From NCBI RefSeq assembly GCF_054482595.1, contig NZ_CM137008.1: a stretch of DNA of 64,000 nucleotides. The stretch is one strand, 5' to 3'. A program made the translations under genes and the position numbers. Under the pieces are notes generated by a model that ran no database searches, was not told the origin of the DNA, and saw nothing but the letters and a program-made list of their open reading frames with translations. Shown piece after piece: positions 12,398-55,864 of this stretch (within the stretch, counting starts at the first letter, position 1; each line of letters starts with the position of its first letter).

Positions 12398-12426
12398 AGA
12401 CTGATGACAAAGTGCGCTTAGTTTAT

Positions 12427-12525
12427 GCCGGATGCGGCGTGAACGCCTTATCCGGCCTACACAATCGTGTGAATTCAATAAATTGATCGATCCGCGTAGG
12501 CCTGATAAGCGTAGCGCATCAGGCA
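12427..12525. repeat. REP/BIME elements (two REP-like palindromic units)
   Basis: GCCGGATGCGGCGTGAACGCCTTATCCGGCCTACA and CGTAGGCCTGATAAGCGTAGCGCATCAGGCA, the typical E. coli REP consensus, in the convergent ccmH/narP intergenic region. Confidence 0.8.
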
Positions 12526-16197: not shown

Positions 16198-16228
16198 AAA
16201 AAAACCAACCGTAAGGGTTGGTTTTTTT
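16198..16228. terminator. Bidirectional rho-independent terminator (original proL/yejO terminator)
   Basis: Stem CCAACC/GGTTGG with loop GTAAG, flanked by an A-run upstream and T-run downstream. Confidence 0.65.
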
Positions 16229-16285
16229 GGGATTTTTGGTCGGCACGAGAGGATTTGAACCTCCGACCCCCGACACCCCATGACG
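16229..16285. repeat. attL: 57-bp direct repeat containing the displaced 3' 48 nt of tRNA-Pro
   Basis: Identical base-for-base to 55706..55762; positions 16237..16284 are the reverse complement of the tRNA-Pro 3' end including CCA. Confidence 0.85.
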
Positions 16286-16654: not shown

Positions 16655-18406
16655 TCATTCTAATGCCTTCTCAATGTTTGTATTTATTTCTGATAAACTA
16701 TTAATTACACCGTCAAATACAAAATCAAGAGCGTTACTATAACCAATTGCTAAAGTAGCTGAATCAAATCCTAGTTTTGCTAAATGCTCAATTGATTTGT
16801 TTACTGCTTCATGAGCTTCAGCATTTCTTAAATCATTATTTATAAAAAACGATGCCACTTTTTTATTTTGAGTTTTAAAATCTGCAAATTCTGTGGCGTG
16901 CTTAAGTACAGATGAGTCTTCATTCTGTTCAATAATTGGCTCGATAAGGTTAAGTAATGATTGAAGTAGTTTCAGAGTTTGGAATTTTTCGATGTCTGAT
17001 TTATTAACACCCATTGCAATTAATAATTTTTTTAAAGAGCCTGATTTAATCTTATTTAAAATCTCATTAATAGTCTTACATCTATTCAAAAAATCCGGTT
17101 CTTGCATGTCATTTGGCGCAACAAATGCTAGCTTCTGCAATACTGGATAGTTAGAGATTCCTTCTGATTCTAACTCTGTGCGATTAATTTCTAAAATGTC
17201 TGCATTGGATAAAGTAACACCAATACTTCTACCAAGTGCTACAAGATTATCGCTAAGTCTTGCTAGTTCTCTAGCGAATTTAAATGTTTTAGATACAATA
17301 TGTTCTCCGCTTAAATCATTTTCAGTGATTTGGTTTGGATCCTTAGCATAATCAAAAACATGATAAACCTCCTCTTCAGGAATTCCTCGATACAGCTCAT
17401 AAAACGGAATTCTGACTAAGTTTCTTCCAACCCTGATGCAATCCCTAAAGGACCATTGTCCACCGTAGCTTGGAGCAACCCTATAAGAATAGCCGTCATA
17501 AAATGGAATAGCATCATATGAAGAATCTTTTTCATATTTAGTAAGGAAAGAGTCATTAACCAAGACATATTCATTGTTTCTGATGTCTTTGGCTCTTGAA
17601 CTCGTCATAGGAGTATCATATCCCGGCCATATTAATTCATCTATATTTAATTTTTTACAAAGTTCAGGCTGAACAGATTGTACACTTCCCCATGCTTGCA
17701 ATAATATATTGTCCCCATTATCTACTATCTCAAAATCTATCCAAGGCAAATCAAACTTGAAATGTTTTGACCCAGACAATAAGTTAATTACTTCCGTCGT
17801 TCTTTGAATACGTGCTTCATAGTAAAAAACACGTACACCAACATAATTTCTCATCCAGAGGTATTTTCTTAGATAATCATTACGCATTGTCCATTTTACA
17901 TCTTTATTACTTCTAAAGTAATACTCGCTTGACACATCCCCTTGTGCGACTCCATAATCGGGCAAGCTTACCTCATCGAAAATGACTTTTTGCTCAGTGT
18001 CACCTATAAGTCTGGGTTTTAGACCAAGCATCATCCATACATCTTCAGCTAAAAAAAATGAAAAGTGAGAACTATCACCCCAAGAAGCTACAATATACTT
18101 ATAACCTGAAATTGATAAACTATAATCTCTTGCTCCGCCTTTAGACCTACAGTCAGGAGTCGAAAATGAAACTAAACCATTAGTAGACTCCTGGAGAACT
18201 TTGATATTATTGATATCTTCTTGTGGTACGGTAGCCATTGTCATATGAGCACACTCATGATTATCTTTAAAAAGATTTTTTTCGTATCTATGTGTGACAA
18301 TGACCTCTTTCTGTGGATTAGTAATATCCTCTATAGATAATAAATCTTTAAGACCTTGAGGGATCTGATCTACTGGTAAAGGTAATTGTGATATATAGTC
18401 AATCAT
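16655..18406 (-). CDS. Hypothetical 583-aa protein (prophage cargo between attL and int)
   Basis: Long uninterrupted ORF in an AT-rich segment with its own AT-rich upstream region; no motif I can assign (no Walker A, HNH or similar). Confidence 0.6.
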   Translation of the reverse strand: MIDYISQLPLPVDQIPQGLKDLLSIEDITNPQKEVIVTHRYEKNLFKDNHECAHMTMATVPQEDINNIKVLQESTNGLVSFSTPDCRSKGGARDYSLSISGYKYIVASWGDSSHFSFFLAEDVWMMLGLKPRLIGDTEQKVIFDEVSLPDYGVAQGDVSSEYYFRSNKDVKWTMRNDYLRKYLWMRNYVGVRVFYYEARIQRTTEVINLLSGSKHFKFDLPWIDFEIVDNGDNILLQAWGSVQSVQPELCKKLNIDELIWPGYDTPMTSSRAKDIRNNEYVLVNDSFLTKYEKDSSYDAIPFYDGYSYRVAPSYGGQWSFRDCIRVGRNLVRIPFYELYRGIPEEEVYHVFDYAKDPNQITENDLSGEHIVSKTFKFARELARLSDNLVALGRSIGVTLSNADILEINRTELESEGISNYPVLQKLAFVAPNDMQEPDFLNRCKTINEILNKIKSGSLKKLLIAMGVNKSDIEKFQTLKLLQSLLNLIEPIIEQNEDSSVLKHATEFADFKTQNKKVASFFINNDLRNAEAHEAVNKSIEHLAKLGFDSATLAIGYSNALDFVFDGVINSLSEINTNIEKALE

Positions 18407-18728: not shown

Positions 18729-19913
18729 TTAACTGGCTTTAATTTCTCCATGTGGTACGACAACCCAATCAATATGGTTTTGCGTATAAATCTTGGTTGA
18801 CTTGGAGTCGCTGTGCGCCATTCGTGCTTGCGGATCGATACCTTGCTGATCGAAAAGATACGCTGCTAATGCTCTAATTTCGTGAAAGGTTGGTCTTTCA
18901 TCTATCGGTAGATTGTCGCATAAACCTAGCTTGTCACGTGTGGCTGAAAACGACCGGCTCAAATAGTCCGGTGCAACTTGAGTAGGGTGTGAAACCTCTT
19001 TGCTGCGTTTAACCTGCCGTTCAGGGATCCTGTGAACGACAAACGGACTGGCCACATTATCTCGGCTATCATCAATTATTCGTTTCAACTCTTCACCAAT
19101 CGGTATTGCAACGTGTGATGCCTCTTTTTTTTGCACTTTTTGCCTGTGGATGTAAAGCGTCCCATATATGCCATTTTGTGGTTGTTCGAACCAGACACAT
19201 CCACATATACCGTCTTTAGGTTCGCGAATTGAGTAACGGATTCGCGATACTTCGAGTCGTGCATGTGTAGTCTGCAATGCTAGGTCCATTGCTGTTCTTA
19301 ACCATGGTGCAGCGGCCTGCCTGATAGCTATAAAATGCTCGAGTGACAGGCGCCGTCTTTTCTTCTCATCAGTCCTACGCATTTTTTTTCTGATGGCCGG
19401 GTTATCCAGCATTAGTGATTCATCGACCGCATAAGAGAACAACTTTTTAAGGAAGCTGACCTTTCTGTTCTGCACATTTGCGGATGCGCAGGCATGATAT
19501 TTATTGATGTAGGTATTAACGTGTTCAAGTGCAATATCGCATGCTGGAACATTTACGAAAAACGCTTTTACGCGTAGAGCGTCATTTTTCCAGTCATCTA
19601 AGGTGCTCTGGGAAGGACGTTCGTCTTCGATAATCCGGGTCATTATGTGATCAACATGTTCAGCAAATGGTTTTGCTTCTCCGATAACACCGCCAGATTC
19701 TCTAATAAGATTATCTACTGATGGAGATAATTCTGGTCGCATCCTCAGGTTGTACTCTCTGGCGATTGCAATGGCTATTGCCCTATCCTTACCTATATTT
19801 TTCTTCTTTCCGGTAATAAGTGTGAATTTATAAACACCTCGATCTTTATCAAAAATCAGATAATCAGGAAGATGTCTGTATTCTTTTTTACGTGGCCTTG
19901 CCGCCATGGTCAC
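18729..19913 (-). CDS. int: Tyrosine-type site-specific integrase (lambda Int family)
   Basis: 394 aa; C-terminal catalytic motifs HEIRAL (HxxR) and KIYTQNH (Tyr nucleophile); lies near attL. Confidence 0.88.
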   Translation of the reverse strand: MTMAARPRKKEYRHLPDYLIFDKDRGVYKFTLITGKKKNIGKDRAIAIAIAREYNLRMRPELSPSVDNLIRESGGVIGEAKPFAEHVDHIMTRIIEDERPSQSTLDDWKNDALRVKAFFVNVPACDIALEHVNTYINKYHACASANVQNRKVSFLKKLFSYAVDESLMLDNPAIRKKMRRTDEKKRRRLSLEHFIAIRQAAAPWLRTAMDLALQTTHARLEVSRIRYSIREPKDGICGCVWFEQPQNGIYGTLYIHRQKVQKKEASHVAIPIGEELKRIIDDSRDNVASPFVVHRIPERQVKRSKEVSHPTQVAPDYLSRSFSATRDKLGLCDNLPIDERPTFHEIRALAAYLFDQQGIDPQARMAHSDSKSTKIYTQNHIDWVVVPHGEIKAS

Positions 19914-21854: not shown

Positions 21855-22529
21855 TTAGGCTTTGATTTTGTATCTTCTTGGTTTTCCTGAGAAAATCACA
21901 GTACCAATTATAGAGCAATTACCGTTGATCTTAATGTAAGGCTCAGGCCAGTTTGGGTTTAACGCTTTGAGATAACGCTGTGTCCCATCTTCTATCAACC
22001 TTTTGAAGGTGGTTTCACCTGTATCGTGCATCAATGCAATAACGTCGTCACCGTGGCAGGCAGGTACTTCAGGATCGACAAAAATCATGTCTCCCGGGCG
22101 GTACTCATCAATCATTGAATCACCTATCACCCGCAAGATATAAGTCATTTCCCCACAGGGTACAGGGCAGGGATACGTTTCTGCTGTGCTCAAATCAACC
22201 TCAGAATATCCAACTTCTTTCCATGCTCCGGCCTGTACCCATGATATGACAGGGACTAATGTGATTTGTTTATTAGTGATTGAAACATCAGGTTTTTTTG
22301 TGATGTTCGTTGTCTGGTGTTCTTGATCGAGCCATCCGACAGGCAGGTCGAAACATTTTTCGATGTGTCGTGCCATGCTGTCACCGATATTTTTAGTAGC
22401 ACCATCTCCCATAAACCTGCTGGTTTGGGTTGGCTCGCGATCAATCATAGTGGCAAAGGAAGAATTCCCGCCAACACCATCTCTCAGTTTTCTGGCGTTA
22501 GACCGCCGGATGTCATGGATTGTTTTCAT
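21855..22529 (-). CDS. Phage cI-like repressor (HTH plus S24 LexA-type peptidase domain)
   Basis: 224 aa; C-terminal part carries the S24 pattern (VIGDSM ... KR, Ser/Lys dyad context); divergent from the cro-like gene. Confidence 0.8.
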   Translation of the reverse strand: MKTIHDIRRSNARKLRDGVGGNSSFATMIDREPTQTSRFMGDGATKNIGDSMARHIEKCFDLPVGWLDQEHQTTNITKKPDVSITNKQITLVPVISWVQAGAWKEVGYSEVDLSTAETYPCPVPCGEMTYILRVIGDSMIDEYRPGDMIFVDPEVPACHGDDVIALMHDTGETTFKRLIEDGTQRYLKALNPNWPEPYIKINGNCSIIGTVIFSGKPRRYKIKA

Positions 22530-23770: not shown

Positions 23771-24701
23771 ATTAACCGGCTATGTATGGGATGGTTGCGC
23801 TGCGTCAGGCATGAAGTTATCCAGCGTGGCAATTATGGCCCGCCTGGCTGATTTCAGTAATGACGAAGGTGTGTGCTGGCCATCAATTGAAACCATTGCC
23901 CGCCAGATTGGCGCGGGGATGAGCACCGTCAGAACGGCTATCGCACGGCTGGAAGCAGAAGGCTGGTTAACTCGTAAGGCGCGTCGCCAGGGTAACCGCA
24001 ATGCGTCGAATGTTTATCAGCTTAACGTTGCGAAGCTTCAGGCAGCGGCATTTTCTCAACTGTCAGATTCTGACCCGTCAAAATCTGACGCATCAAAATC
24101 TGACCCGTCAAAATTTGATGCGTCGAAATCTGGCAAAAAAGCGGGTTTTCACCCGTCAGAATCTGGCGGGGATCCGTCAGTAAAATCAAAACATGATCCG
24201 TCAGATAAAAAAAACTCTCGTCCGGACGCTTCGCAACCGGACACGCAGATGGATGAACAGGATTTTTTAACTCGCCATCCTGATGCGGTTGTATTCAGCC
24301 CTAAAAAGCGCCAGTGGGGGACGCAGGATGATTTGACCTGCGCACAGTGGCTCTGGAAAAAAATCATCGCCCTGTACGAGCAGGCTGCCGAATGTGACGG
24401 CGAGGTGGTTCGTCCCAAAGAACCGAACTGGACAGCCTGGGCAAACGAAATTCGCCTGATGTGTGTGCAGGATGGTCGTACTCACAAACAAATCTGCGAG
24501 ATGTACAGCCGCGTCAGCCGCGATCCGTTCTGGTGCCGTAACGTGCTCAGCCCGTCGAAGCTGCGGGAAAAATGGGATGAGCTTTCCCTGCGCTTATCGC
24601 CGTCCGTAAGCACGTACACCGAAAAACGCGAAGACCCGTACTTCAAATCCAGTTACGACAACGTGGACTACAGCCAGATCCCGGCAGGATTCAGGGGGTG
24701 A
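23760..24701 (+). CDS. Phage replication initiation protein (N-terminal HTH, central SKSD repeat linker, DnaT-like C-terminus)
   Basis: 313 aa; N-terminal winged-helix-like region (IARQIGAGMSTVRTAIARLEAEGWL); repeat peptide DPSKSDASKSDPSKFDASKSG encoded by DNA iterons; position equivalent to lambda O. Confidence 0.7.
   Translation: MSTKLTGYVWDGCAASGMKLSSVAIMARLADFSNDEGVCWPSIETIARQIGAGMSTVRTAIARLEAEGWLTRKARRQGNRNASNVYQLNVAKLQAAAFSQLSDSDPSKSDASKSDPSKFDASKSGKKAGFHPSESGGDPSVKSKHDPSDKKNSRPDASQPDTQMDEQDFLTRHPDAVVFSPKKRQWGTQDDLTCAQWLWKKIIALYEQAAECDGEVVRPKEPNWTAWANEIRLMCVQDGRTHKQICEMYSRVSRDPFWCRNVLSPSKLREKWDELSLRLSPSVSTYTEKREDPYFKSSYDNVDYSQIPAGFRG
24069..24128. repeat. Four tandem 15-bp iterons (TCTGACNCNTCAAAA) inside the replication gene, putative ori
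   Basis: Direct repeats, each with internal dyad GTCA-AAAT-CTGAC, followed by further CCGTCAG motifs and an A-rich tract; same layout as lambda ori inside O. Confidence 0.55.
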
Positions 24702-51494: not shown

Positions 51495-51904
51495 TGAATG
51501 CGTCATATGCAGTTATTGAAAATGGGATGGTTGTGAATGTCATTGTCTGGGATGGCGAGGCTGAATTCACAGTGCCGGATAATCAGCAGCTCATTGATAT
51601 TTCTGATATCAGTGAGCATCCCGGAATCGGCTGGGGGTATTCAGACGGGGTATTTACTGCGCCGCTCCCTCCGGAACGTTCTCATGATGAACTGGTAGCT
51701 GACGCTGAACAGAAAAAACAGTCGCTGATAGACGCAGCAATGGCCAATATCAGCGTGATTCAGTTAAAGCTGCAGGCCGGGCGCAAACTGACGCAAGAAG
51801 AAACTACCCGACTTAACGTTGTGCTGGATTACATTGACGCGGTGACAGCAACTGATACCAGCACCGCGCCAGATGTCATCTGGCCTGAACTGCCGGAGGC
51901 GTAG
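51494..51904 (+). CDS. Tail fibre assembly protein (Tfa), active orientation
   Basis: ATG overlaps fibre stop (TAATG) with AGGAG RBS; C-terminal conserved Tfa tail (W/PELPE); mirrored by a convergent Tfa paralogue. Confidence 0.75.
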   Translation: MNASYAVIENGMVVNVIVWDGEAEFTVPDNQQLIDISDISEHPGIGWGYSDGVFTAPLPPERSHDELVADAEQKKQSLIDAAMANISVIQLKLQAGRKLTQEETTRLNVVLDYIDAVTATDTSTAPDVIWPELPEA

Positions 51905-52316
51905 GCCATTCAATATCTGGCCCACTGGAAGTATCGACCAGCTCCAGTGCGTCCAGATAATCCAGCCACAAATTATATTGCGCCAGTTCCTCACCTTTCA
52001 GACGACCAATAGCCGCTTTACCAGCCCATTGTTTACTGTTCATATAATCGTTAGCCTGATTAATCAATTGCTGCTTTTCCAGTTCGGCTGCAGCAATCTG
52101 TTCCTCATGTGTTGGTGGTGGAATTTCAGACCATGCAGGAAAACCATTTTCTCCAGCGATACGGATTTTTCCTTTCGGCGGTAATCCGGAAAACTCAATA
52201 TACGCTTGCTCATCAACTTCAACAGCATCATCTGGCCATGAGTCAGCTTGAGTGTAATCCTCTTTCATTTCCAGTGGATAGAAAGAGTTTGTAGTCGCGG
52301 AATATATGTAATTCAT
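51876..52316 (-). CDS. Tail fibre assembly protein (Tfa'), alternative, in inverted orientation
   Basis: 146 aa; convergent with tfa; C-terminus DIEWPTPPAVQAR similar to the active Tfa. Confidence 0.7.
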   Translation of the reverse strand: MNYIYSATTNSFYPLEMKEDYTQADSWPDDAVEVDEQAYIEFSGLPPKGKIRIAGENGFPAWSEIPPPTHEEQIAAAELEKQQLINQANDYMNSKQWAGKAAIGRLKGEELAQYNLWLDYLDALELVDTSSGPDIEWPTPPAVQAR

Positions 52317-52337
52317 TTTTCACTCCATATAGCTAAA

Positions 52338-52700
52338 TTAACAGCCTAACGCTAAAAATGAAGCGCCGAGACCTGGAGTACTGGCTCTGGATATAAATTT
52401 AACCGGGTCGGAACTAAAACCTGCGCAGGCAATATAACCAACAGACCCGCTATCTGGTGTGTAGTCTTGTGAGACCAAAACACGCAGACATCGGTTTGGA
52501 AATGCAATCGGAAAATGGGTTACCACATCCTGTGCAATGCCTGGTGCGCCGATTGAGCCCCACTGAAGAATAAAACCAGATGGTAATTTTTGATATCCAG
52601 TACCTGAAACAGAAAGCGTGAAGCTACCCATATCAGGTATCTGATTCGTCCCTGTCCCCACATTCCTTTTTGCCGCTTCTCCCAAACCAACGTTTATGAA
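52338..52700 (-). other. Alternative tail-fibre variable C-terminal coding segment (promoterless, inverted orientation)
   Basis: Open frame on minus strand from the right crossover site to 52338, Gly/Ser-rich like fibre tips; would be fused to the constant fibre N-terminus after inversion. Confidence 0.6.
52678..52695. repeat. Invertase crossover site (right), inverted relative to 50852..50869
   Basis: Reverse complement AAACGTTGGTTTGGGAGA matches the left site with one mismatch. Confidence 0.65.
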
Positions 52701-52756
52701 AATGCAGAAATAACAAGCAAATGGCATCATTCCTGCTTTTGTCAGGGAGATCTATC

Positions 52757-52885
52757 ATGCTTATTGGTTATGTACGCGTATCAACAAATGACCAGAATAC
52801 CGATCTACAACGCAATGCGCTGAACTGTGCAGGGTGTGAGCTGATTTTTGAAGACAAGATAAGCGGTACAAAGTCCGAGACCTAG
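52757..52885 (+). pseudogene. Truncated serine DNA invertase (Pin/Gin/Hin family), N-terminal 42 codons only
   Basis: MLIGYVRVSTNDQNTDLQRNALNCAGCELIFEDKISGTKSET then stop; matches the invertase N-terminus including the catalytic Ser region; remainder replaced by unrelated AT-rich DNA. Confidence 0.8.
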
Positions 52886-52980: not shown

Positions 52981-54930
52981 TTAATCGTGTTTTGGCCATA
53001 CTTTCAATGCAATTTCCCCCAACTTTTTACCCCGCTCCAGGATTTCATCCTCATCCCATTTATCCTTAACTATAAGTGGAATGTTCAGTCGTAGATTGGT
53101 GTGGACGATGAGAGCATCACGTTTTTTCAGAAATACAGCATTCTGAACAGAACGGTTTACGCTAAGGTTAAGCAAAGTTAGATTTCCCAACGTAGCTATC
53201 GCTTGTTGCCGTTTCCTTACCAGTAGCTGTTCAGGGGTAAGATCGGTTCCAGACAGAACAATTTGGTTCAATACCGTAGCATCTGAATTTGTCACCATAT
53301 GACCATTTTCGAGAGGCCAACAGGAAAACCAACTTTGAGGCATAAGATGATCGATATCGAGATTGGAAAGATTTGGACCATCAGGCTTCTCTGTCTTCAC
53401 TTGGCGACAAAGTTCTCTTTCAAGTTCCGTTAACATTGAGCGCATTTTCGGTGCGTCGAGCCTGCCAGGATAAAGTGGAGCATTGATGCAAGCATTGAGA
53501 AATTCTGAGTCACCAGGCCAACGTGAGGCTTCGCCATTTAAGCTATTGAGGATATTACGTAACTCAACACTGGAAATTTCCGTTTTAGACAAGTGCCGCA
53601 ATACATTCATAAATACATTGTTGTAATTCTTTGGCGTCAGGCCACATACGGCTCTTCGTACTACGTAGGAGACAAGATCATTATACATGGCTGCTTTCTC
53701 ATCATCAGCGATGTTAGCTATCGAAATGAACAAAGCAAGCGGATAAAGTGTCGTCACATCATAGTCTGCGATGCGATATCCAAAGTGTGAGATGGGGGTT
53801 GTGCCAAAACCATCAACCAATTCTTTATATTGTGATGCATATTGTTTGAGGCGCTTTACTTGCAGATCTGCTCGTTGTGAAGACAAGTCCTTACTTACAT
53901 AATCACGATACTCATTGTAAAGGCGAGACAGATCAATTTCACGCTGCCTTTCTGATTGCAATGTCGCATGTACTAGCCACTCCATGCGTGGTTTATTAAT
54001 ACGTCCACGGCGTTGCTTTTCCGACCAGTATTTATCTTCAAAGCTCTTCCACTCATTTTCATATAATTCAATAGCATTAATATTTTCATGCTCAGCGCAC
54101 ATAAAGATATAGTTGCGAATAAGATCCGTGGCATGAAGTTCCGCCCCTCGCCCATTTAATGTTTCAAAAATTATTTGGGCATCATCTTCAGCTTCGAGAA
54201 ATATGCTTACCAGTTTCAGATCTGTTAAGACAGCCTCAATTAGAGCTACAGCATTTTCTTGTGGTGAGTGGTTTTCTATTTTAATCCATTTTATAAAGGC
54301 TTCAGTAAAAAAACATAATGCTTCTAGTGATGGCGGGTGATTAAAATGCTTACGCAACGTACCATGCTGCGTGAAACTATCAGAGAATACGTCCCGGAGA
54401 TCGTCAATATTTTCAACATTAAAACTTTGAATAAAATGAGTTTGATCCCGAAAAGTTGGCCATAGTTTGAAGCGTTCTACTTCTTTATTTCGCATTGTGT
54501 CTTCGTTTGAGTTTTTCAGGCAAGGCGAAATGAGAGCCTCTAAGCTGAAAAGATCCGTAGCACGTAATGCTAATCGGATGGATGCCAGAACATATTGAAG
54601 AGTGGTCAATCGTTGCTGACCATCAATAATATGTATGGAATCTACACCTAATAATCCTTTTTTTGATTGAGGTTCCAGTACAACCGCACCAAGGAAATGG
54701 GGAGTTGGTTTTGTACCCGAGAGCCGGGATTGTGCTTTCTCTAGGATATCCTCCAGTAGAGCTGACCATTGGTCTTGCTGAGTCCATACATAGGCACGTT
54801 GATAGAATGGAACACAGTATTGTCGGCGGTCTTGAAAAAGTTGTTGGACAGTTAGCGTCTCGGATTTCATGGTATACCTGTAAGCGACATTGTACAAAAG
54901 TGAGGAGTTAATCTGATTTAGAACAATCAT
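52981..54930 (-). CDS. GmrSD-like type IV restriction endonuclease family protein (N-terminal DUF262, C-terminal DUF1524/HNH-like)
   Basis: 649 aa; DUF262 motifs (YCVPFYQRAYVW, IIDGQQRLTTL) and C-terminal His-Me finger region (LDIDHLMPQSW ... NLTLLNLSVNRS); AT-rich. Confidence 0.75.
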   Translation of the reverse strand: MIVLNQINSSLLYNVAYRYTMKSETLTVQQLFQDRRQYCVPFYQRAYVWTQQDQWSALLEDILEKAQSRLSGTKPTPHFLGAVVLEPQSKKGLLGVDSIHIIDGQQRLTTLQYVLASIRLALRATDLFSLEALISPCLKNSNEDTMRNKEVERFKLWPTFRDQTHFIQSFNVENIDDLRDVFSDSFTQHGTLRKHFNHPPSLEALCFFTEAFIKWIKIENHSPQENAVALIEAVLTDLKLVSIFLEAEDDAQIIFETLNGRGAELHATDLIRNYIFMCAEHENINAIELYENEWKSFEDKYWSEKQRRGRINKPRMEWLVHATLQSERQREIDLSRLYNEYRDYVSKDLSSQRADLQVKRLKQYASQYKELVDGFGTTPISHFGYRIADYDVTTLYPLALFISIANIADDEKAAMYNDLVSYVVRRAVCGLTPKNYNNVFMNVLRHLSKTEISSVELRNILNSLNGEASRWPGDSEFLNACINAPLYPGRLDAPKMRSMLTELERELCRQVKTEKPDGPNLSNLDIDHLMPQSWFSCWPLENGHMVTNSDATVLNQIVLSGTDLTPEQLLVRKRQQAIATLGNLTLLNLSVNRSVQNAVFLKKRDALIVHTNLRLNIPLIVKDKWDEDEILERGKKLGEIALKVWPKHD

Positions 54931-55673
54931 TTTATTTTGCTATGATACAACGTATTTGTTACCGGTTAAGCAAAAAACGCGTCTGAACGCTGACGTTTTA
55001 GGGCTTTACTGGTTATTCTTTCTTATCTCTTCATCATCCCATCGGCATCCTGTCGAGGTTGTTGACTTGTTGTTATTTATTTTGTCTAGGCGCTGTTTAA
55101 TTATTATTGATAGAACTGATGGTGAGAGGTGATTGAAACCGTAGGCACGTCGTTTGCAAGGACGTGCTACGACTGGCTGGTGAATTTCCGATAGTGCGAG
55201 TATTGAATGATTTCCTACGTGCTAACTAGTGAACAAACAACTCTTCAGTAGACTCTCAGGTATCATTCAGAGTTTCCTGAACGAAAGTTTTAGCTCAATC
55301 TTTATCTGCAGTATGTCTAACTGAAAAACTATCGTTGCTGGTGGCTTTTACGATCATCTCCACATCGTCATAACGCTTGCCAATGTGTTGGGTTAATTCT
55401 TCCTTTAACGCGTCCACAGCGCCGTTTGGCATTTGGTCATTTGTCTTTGGCTATGGAGATCTCAATACGCATAACACTTCTTTTGTACTGCGTTTGTAGA
55501 CAGTATTATTCTTATCTGTGTAAATAAACAGTATCAAGACTTCGTTTTAGCTGCATAAGAAAAAAGAGATGGATACATTCGGAAAGCTTTTGATGGTGGT
55601 AGGCTAAGTGAATAGCCTAAAGGTGTTTTACCCCAATTATTCCCCGGTATTTCTCCGCATAAAAAACAATCAT

Positions 55674-55703
55674 AAAAAAACCAGCCATAATAGGCTGGTT
55701 TTT
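55674..55703. terminator. Bidirectional rho-independent terminator (phage-borne homologue of the proL terminator)
   Basis: Stem CCAGCC/GGCTGG with loop ATAATA flanked by A-run and T-run; lies just 3' of the restored tRNA-Pro. Confidence 0.65.
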
Positions 55704-55705
55704 AA

Positions 55706-55762
55706 GGGATTTTTGGTCGGCACGAGAGGATTTGAACCTCCGACCCCCGACACCCCATGACG
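55706..55762. repeat. attR: 57-bp direct repeat (overlaps 3' part of intact proL)
   Basis: Identical to 16229..16285. Confidence 0.85.
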
Positions 55763-55790
55763 GTGCGCTACCAGGCTGCGCTACGTGCCG
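55714..55790 (-). tRNA. proL: tRNA-Pro (anticodon GGG)
   Basis: 77 nt; reverse complement reads CGGCACGTAGCGCAGCCTGGTAGCGCACCGTCATGGGGTGTCGGGGGTCGGAGGTTCAAATCCTCTCGTGCCGACCA with T-loop GGTTCAAATCC and CCA end. Confidence 0.92.
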
Positions 55791-55864
55791 ACTCGTGGCT
55801 GTTAATACTACCGTTTTCCACACCGATTGCAAGTAAGATATTTCGCTAACTGATTTATAATTAA

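Follow-up and report, generated by a model that had tools for sequence, protein, structure and literature searches.

A decayed DinI-like unit at the attR end of a lambdoid prophage in proL of Escherichia coli

The interval between positions 54,931 and 55,705 is the right end of a ~39.5-kb lambdoid prophage that resides in the 3' end of proL (all positions refer to the window, i.e. the whole 64-kb stretch of DNA that was analyzed). This attR end very probably consists of the P arm, a dead DinI-like SOS unit and the upstream region of a GmrSD-type restriction gene, with the joint located directly after the terminator of the DinI-like unit. The feature as such is ordinary and already known, as the pseudogene is annotated in RefSeq. 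That DinI-like genes are found beside attP, that they are accompanied by LexA boxes and that phages integrate in the 3' ends of tRNA genes had likewise been established. The original prediction had taken the interval for a noncoding tail of the prophage with a hairpin and the remnant of an ORF; to this can be added that the hairpin is the dinI-like terminator, that a promoter with a LexA box has survived and that the last ~165 bp make up the P arm of the attachment site.

Results and discussion

Integration of the prophage in proL

The window covers the E. coli chromosome around yejK-yejL-yejM-proL. It contains a lone tRNA gene, recovered by both ARAGORN and Rfam, and a 70-nt direct repeat (16216-16285 and 55693-55762) that flanks the prophage. 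The elements that define the right end are the following:

55714-55790, minus strand: tRNA-Pro (GGG), proL, the integration target (ARAGORN, Rfam, PGAP)
55705-55762, no strand: exact att core, shared by attL (16228-16285), attR and attB; made up of the 3' part of proL and the next 9 nt
55676-55703, minus strand: phage-supplied intrinsic terminator for tRNA-Pro, an 11-bp stem followed by Ts (terminator scan, folding)
55538-55704, no strand: P arm of attR, of phage origin (~99% conservation among four proL-type copies)

Alignment showed that the 58-bp core is identical in attL, attR and the attB of the empty site in BL21(DE3), which is the identity that characterizes a lambda-type attachment site. 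The tyrosine integrase, encoded near attL at 18729-19913, has an arm-binding domain of the lambda type (PF09003). The bracketing repeat, the shared core and the position of the integrase together identify 54931-55705 as the attR-proximal end of the prophage. The arrangement is like that of other temperate phages that integrate in tRNA genes (an exact core over the 3' part of the tRNA gene that is duplicated in attL and attR, a tRNA that is rebuilt from phage DNA and an Int with the lambda arm-binding domain) and there is nothing unusual about it, the notable detail being the phage-borne tRNA terminator with its paired stem changes.

Various other elements were observed within the window: i) a 583-aa ORF between attL and the integrase gene (16655-18406, minus strand), uncharacterized cargo at the other end of the prophage for which no match was found in Pfam or PADLOC; ii) a ~224-aa ORF (21855-22529) within the prophage that, judging from its sequence, appears to encode a CI/LexA-type repressor; iii) six tandem repeats of ~15 bp (TCAAAATCTGACCCG-like) at 24048-24170, also within the prophage, that resemble the iterons of replication origins; and iv) a REP-like pair of 40-nt repeats (90% identical) in the chromosomal flanks, at 12425-12464 and 59079-59118.

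The P arm and the replacement of the tRNA terminator

The P arm (55538-55704) was found ~99% conserved even where the dinI part diverges more (in one copy the overall match to the query is 89%). It contains the 10-mer TGGTGGTAGG at 55594-55603, for which the sole other exact copy in the window is located in the P' arm (16319). We consider this 10-mer a candidate arm-type Int site with a putative function in Int binding; it is shared once per arm, and the chance of a match between the arms was roughly estimated at ~0.06. A small hairpin is present within the same arm (55600-55619).

The hairpin at 55676-55703 folds with -16.7 kcal/mol (z -5.8). Its stem reads CCAGCC..GGCTGG in the phage copy, versus CCAACC..GGTTGG in the native attB and in attL. 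Since the hairpin of the empty site differs and the native one is now found at attL, the phage provides not only the 3' end of the tRNA but also a substitute terminator. A scan with Rfam (E ≤ 1) over 54000-56500 yielded the tRNA as the sole real match; a hit to rnk_pseudo (24.5/55 bits) was rejected, as it merely represented the tRNA terminator.

The ORF belongs to a DinI-like pseudogene

The next elements, on the minus strand, are the remains of a gene of the DinI-like family:

55226-55472, minus strand: DinI-like family pseudogene (Pfam PF06183, alignment to intact genes, PGAP)
55295-55432, minus strand: 45-codon ORF, an internal open stretch of the pseudogene (ORF list, translation, Pfam)
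55172-55225, minus strand: 3' UTR of the dinI-like gene, with a 15-bp deletion compared to the intact homologues (alignments)

The small minus-strand ORF had been predicted correctly, including its translation, though it encodes 45 aa and was listed as having 44 codons, and with its stop codon it runs from 55432 to 55295, i.e. 1-2 nt off from the positions given for it before. The ORF matches PF06183 with 31.9 bits (gathering cut-off 24.2), so that its description as a gene fragment was right: it is the central part of the pseudogene. The minus-strand translation through the ORF and past it is a DinI-like sequence with stops. The family start codon is found at 55472 and the stop at 55228-55226, which corresponds to a frame of 82 codons. 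The repaired 82-aa translation scores 43.8 bits against PF06183 (cut-off 24.2), shares 79% identity with the DinI-like protein of mEp460 (82 aa, without gaps) and matches residues 1-81 of E. coli DinI (PDB 1GHH) with an E-value of 2.4e-07.

The lesions were mapped by aligning the DNA to two intact genes, that of mEp460 and that of a prophage integrated in dusA. They comprise two deletions of 1 bp each within runs of A just past codon 11 (around codons 11-15), two nonsense codons (TCA to TGA and TGG to TGA) and a Trp to Leu change near the C-terminus. The intact frame of ~80 codons that marks the PF06183 family is thus interrupted by two frameshifts and two in-frame TGA codons, and we therefore regard the sequence as a pseudogene of the DinI-like family and not as a functional member. 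The same conclusion is found in RefSeq: PGAP labels the 100%-identical sequence of strain 50EVA "DinI-like family protein; frameshifted; internal stop" and likewise annotates the 99%-identical copy of UTI89, which has just one of the two 1-bp deletions, as a DinI-like pseudogene.

Decayed dinI-like copies are present in further proL-integrated prophages as well. In mEp460, Lys8385Vzw and the KN13-4 prophage an intact gene is found directly beside int/attP, which bears out the earlier suggestion that decayed remnants of a neighbor of attP might be retained here. The ~400-bp module to which the gene belongs (window 55136-55537) was recovered in 173 phage records at 80-84% identity, and 969 of the 5426 complete E. 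coli genomes match some part of the query. The window copy resembles the DinI-like genes of lambdoid phages (mEp460_021, phage cdtI orf30, Lys8385Vzw dinI) in length, in its place beside attP/int, in the promoter with two LexA boxes, in the 3' stem-loop and, after repair, in amino acid sequence (79% identity). It differs from the intact genes in that it has been inactivated (two frameshifts, two TGA codons), in that the Shine-Dalgarno sequence, the -35, the -10 and LexA box 2 have been weakened, and in that the 3' UTR is 15 bp shorter and the T-tract reduced.

It had also been proposed that the 45-codon ORF represents a small protein, which would then be a shortened DinI-like peptide with an independent function. 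The frame is indeed open, starts with ATG and holds the N-terminal two-thirds of the DinI Pfam domain. Yet, it arises only via two frameshifts relative to the family start codon, the rest of the family sequence continues in frame with two TGA codons interrupting it, a Shine-Dalgarno-like motif was not seen before the ATG when the sequence was read by eye, and the upstream frame context is not conserved (UTI89 differs by one frameshift). The product would moreover be devoid of the C-terminal segment of the family, which is reportedly the helix by which DinI contacts RecA. We consider a genuine small protein highly improbable and take the ORF to be part of the pseudogene.

The PGAP annotation of some genomes has an 81-bp pseudogene fragment of a "capsid protein" opposite the dinI 3' UTR and terminator (L003 2492-2572 and L004 3025-3105 among the loci compared; window ~55133-55218, plus strand). 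It is probably a spurious similarity call on a widespread noncoding element.

A putative LexA-box promoter precedes the pseudogene

Upstream of the pseudogene the control elements of an SOS gene can still be recognized:

55508-55537, minus strand: dinI-like promoter, TTGATA-18-AAGAAT (consensus scan, homologue alignment, mEp460 annotation)
55516-55531, no strand: LexA box 1, perfect CTGT-N8-ACAG, between the -35 and the -10, invariant in 9 homologues
55488-55503, minus strand: LexA box 2, degenerate CTGT-N8-GCAG, one mismatch (homologue alignment)

Box 1 is the sole exact match to CTGT-N8-ACAG in the 64-kb window and as such agrees with the LexA-box consensus that marks genes under SOS control. 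Box 2 overlies the presumed start site and is perfect in the intact homologues (TACTGTATACAAACACAGTA); both boxes are conserved in the 9 homologues. The intact homologues have a -35 TTGACA and a -10 region TAAAAAT, and the mEp460 record annotates a promoter at this position. The total number of sites in the promoter scan was not above that in shuffled sequence. From its sequence and conservation, the dinI-like unit would have had promoter activity and would have been bound by LexA.

Several changes are shared by the lineage to which the window belongs: the -35 went from TTGACA to TTGATA, the -10 was altered, box 2 went from ACAG to GCAG and the Shine-Dalgarno from GAGGGA to AAGAAG. Judging by these substitutions the expression signals are decaying together with the reading frame, and since the promoter is weaker than in the intact relatives, the dinI unit may be transcriptionally dead too.

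For the dinI homologues of the Salmonella Gifsy prophages that have adjacent LexA boxes, SOS regulation has been shown experimentally (PMC3121763). The dinI-antirepressor operons of these prophages (Lemire et al. 2011, PMC3121763) are like the unit described here in that a prophage dinI gene is preceded by a LexA box and has co-directional genes after it. They differ in that in the Gifsy prophages the locus is found behind the replication genes and serves to express a small antirepressor, whereas the window unit occupies the attR end and finishes in a terminator of its own. No minus-strand ORF of at least 25 aa is present between 54931 and 55135 according to the ORF list. A Gifsy-type antirepressor behind dinI was rejected, as there is no such ORF; the prophage appears, from its sequence, to have a CI-type repressor.

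The hairpin descends from the dinI-like terminator

55140-55171, minus strand: dinI-like terminator hairpin, 11-bp stem with one bulge, 9-nt loop, poor T-tract GTTTCAAT (folding, conservation)

The 7-bp stem that had been noticed in this region is real (GCACGTC at 55145-55151 and GACGTGC at 55161-55167, around a 9-nt loop); it ends at 55167 instead of 55170 and is part of a longer stem, as CGTA/TACG lengthen it to 11 bp (55140-55171), one G being bulged. The 41-nt minus-strand RNA folds with -15.2 kcal/mol (z -3.0) and 2 of 200 shuffled sequences fold equally well; folding of the whole 116-nt dinI 3' region gave no signal besides the hairpin (z -0.59). The hairpin is located at the 3' end of the dinI-like gene in all of the 11 aligned loci, ~55 nt past the stop codon on the minus strand. 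It was recovered by RNAalifold, with compensatory two-sided changes for 5 of the 14 predicted pairs in at least one sequence (e.g. at column pair 121/148, where C-G has become U-A in the window).

In the intact phages the stem reads CCGCAG..CTGCGG and is followed by TTTTT. The presence of the TTTTT run after the stem in mEp460, PhiR63_1 and KN13-4 identifies the hairpin of these phages as a canonical intrinsic terminator. The window and its relatives have GTTTCA at this position. The window hairpin thus has the stable and G+C-rich stem-loop of an intrinsic terminator but not the U-run 3' of the stem (window GUUUCAAU versus GGUUUUU/GCUUUUU in the intact phages), and the terminator scan did not detect it at 55140-55171. 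The sequence comparison suggests that the hairpin descends from a terminator that may be leaky here, and any termination activity that it has retained would be that of a weakened element. The homology between lineages stops exactly after the stem, from which we infer a mosaic joint with the next module at this point.

The hairpin could in principle be read differently, namely as part of a plus-strand sRNA related to Shigella CssrB. The last ~42 positions of Rfam RF02799 align to 55114-55171 (plus strand) with high similarity in the stem, but the match scores 20.8 bits against a gathering cut-off of 76 (E 0.24), the alignment is confined to the terminal hairpin and lacks 135 of the 180 model positions, and the plus strand is without a U-tract. 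Moreover, the near-palindromic stem is located at the position of the dinI-like terminator in every homologue. A literature search on CssrB yielded only unrelated subjects (perovskite, wastewater). The CssrB-like sRNA was rejected, as the score was below threshold and the near-palindromic stem alone was aligned; there is very little chance that such an RNA is encoded here, and we retain the reading of the hairpin as a former dinI-like terminator.

The upstream region of the GmrSD restriction gene

Beyond the joint lies the region upstream of the DUF262/GmrSD gene, with two putative elements:

54942-54969, minus strand: candidate sigma-70 promoter of the GmrSD gene, TTAACC-16-TATCAT (9/12 in a consensus scan)
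54871-54930, minus strand: probably the 5' leader of the restriction gene (GmrSD, type IV; PGAP start); with the upstream ATG at 54930 as start, and only then, it would make up the first 20 codons

The start that PGAP assigns to the gene in UTI89 and p10A corresponds to 54870 in the window (MKSETL...). The PADLOC profile mREase_IV aligns over its full length (1-629 of 629) to the version that starts at this position, and the Pfam domain GmrSD_N begins at residue 8 of the 629-aa version. The restriction gene therefore most likely starts at 54870 and not at 54930, and consequently the untranslated gap is ~834 bp long (54871-55704). The tail had been put at 780 bp, which is too short; its noncoding nature was confirmed, as ORFs between the tRNA and the GmrSD-like gene do not exceed 58 aa, the length of one on the plus strand (54956-55132, TTG start). 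This ORF was dismissed as a gene on the basis that it has no Pfam match and that a stop interrupts its homologue in p10A. The AT-richness ascribed to the tail is mild (GC 0.39-0.42): it holds in comparison with the chromosome at yejM (0.50-0.55) but not in comparison with the GmrSD gene (0.38-0.44).

The sequence between 54871 and 55139 (~265 bp) travels with the GmrSD gene at ~97% identity or better in three genomic contexts (compared with the window were the ssrA-linked island of UTI89 and p10A), and presumably it represents the promoter and leader of the gene. The suggestion that the region holds the promoter of the restriction gene is therefore plausible; its candidate position, 54969-54942, was derived from a single consensus match of 9/12. 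At ~54974-54999, upstream of this candidate promoter, a possible weak hairpin with Ts behind it did not reach significance (z -0.59) and was not retained.

A number of observations concern the surroundings of the gene here and in other strains. UTI89 (L006, NZ_CP062985.1, 1051-3870) contains the GmrSD gene, the dinI pseudogene and the P arm at 99% identity, and its copy includes the 3' half of tRNA-Pro (to window ~55762); the island is located by ssrA and is followed by unrelated genes. This suggests that the UTI89 island is a recombinant or tandem element that has kept a proL-type attP remnant. In strain 50EVA (L001 4498-5726) the 5' end of the DUF262/GmrSD gene is separated from the 100%-identical studied region by an IS3-family element that is absent from the window. 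On the other side of the GmrSD gene in the window there is a truncated Hin/Pin-type invertase gene (52721-52885, plus strand; recombinase family protein, missing C-terminus, according to PGAP) with oppositely oriented fragments of tail-fibre and tail-fibre-assembly genes beside it (51876-52730, minus strand). The whole looks like a decayed invertible tail-fibre switch that abuts the GmrSD gene.

Cargo behind the dinI-like terminator and possible read-through

The cargo that is found between the tail-fibre genes and the dinI-like terminator differs among related prophages (window 52981-55139; L012 147-2349; L013 1138-2163; L004 422-2814; L010 1-388). It consists of: GmrSD/mREase_IV in the window, UTI89 and p10A; DUF4236 and DUF2971 or an acyltransferase in other proL-type prophages; a LEM-3-like GIY-YIG protein and an acyltransferase at another locus; and cdtC in phage cdtI. 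In the E. coli chromosomal loci that were examined the cargo is co-directional with dinI, and the homology breaks right after the hairpin.

One might argue that the SOS promoter has been co-opted, in the sense that read-through from the LexA-controlled dinI promoter past the weakened terminator (GTTTCAAT versus TTTTT) raises the expression of the GmrSD gene when DNA is damaged or the prophage is induced. Despite the ruined coding frame the promoter has been kept, as have LexA box 1 and the -35 (5/6 matches); the GmrSD gene lies 270 bp from the dinI unit in the same orientation, and all members of the lineage with minus-strand cargo have the short T-tract CGGTTTCA where phages without such cargo have TTTTT. 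In the Gifsy prophages a LexA-regulated operon opens with dinI and drives the genes behind it (PMC3121763). However, the degrading substitutions in the promoter, box 2 and the Shine-Dalgarno are found throughout the lineage and look like neutral decay and not like selection, the hairpin is intact and stable (-15.2 kcal/mol), the GmrSD gene has its own ~265 bp of conserved upstream sequence with a candidate promoter, and minus-strand cargo is to be expected anyway for genes that are expressed from a repressed prophage. We consider such read-through improbable and favor a decayed unit next to a restriction gene with its own upstream region. For the same reading extended to a slot for cargo exchange in proL-type and related lambdoid prophages, with co-directional cargo behind a LexA-controlled promoter and a terminator poor in Ts, and with read-through if any, the prospects are equally slim.

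Conclusions

The organization of the attR end can be summarized as follows. Reading the minus strand from the tRNA inward, the P arm comes first, with the phage terminator substituting for the displaced native one of the tRNA. It is followed by a complete but dead DinI-like unit, i.e. a sigma-70 promoter, two putative LexA operators, a weakened ribosome binding site, the 82-codon frame and a stem-loop terminator. With the frame destroyed by two frameshifts and two nonsense codons, a functional protein cannot arise here; in the intact relatives the unit would yield a small SOS-induced protein that, by homology to E. coli DinI, is predicted to modulate RecA filaments. The junction between the dinI module and the restriction cargo lies immediately after the terminator stem, and then come the ~265 bp upstream of the GmrSD-type (type IV, modification-dependent) gene, presumably its promoter and leader.

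What was a vague "noncoding tail" can now be replaced by named parts, and the prophage boundary was confirmed. Of practical use are the exact structure of attR with the tRNA terminator that the phage brings along, the revised start of the restriction gene (54870), and the recognition of the dinI-like terminator as a mosaic joint where cargo, including defence genes, entered related prophages. Added biological interest would come only from SOS read-through into the restriction gene, if true: SOS would then boost defence or conversion cargo, and anti-phage restriction would become coupled to damage of the DNA or induction of the prophage.
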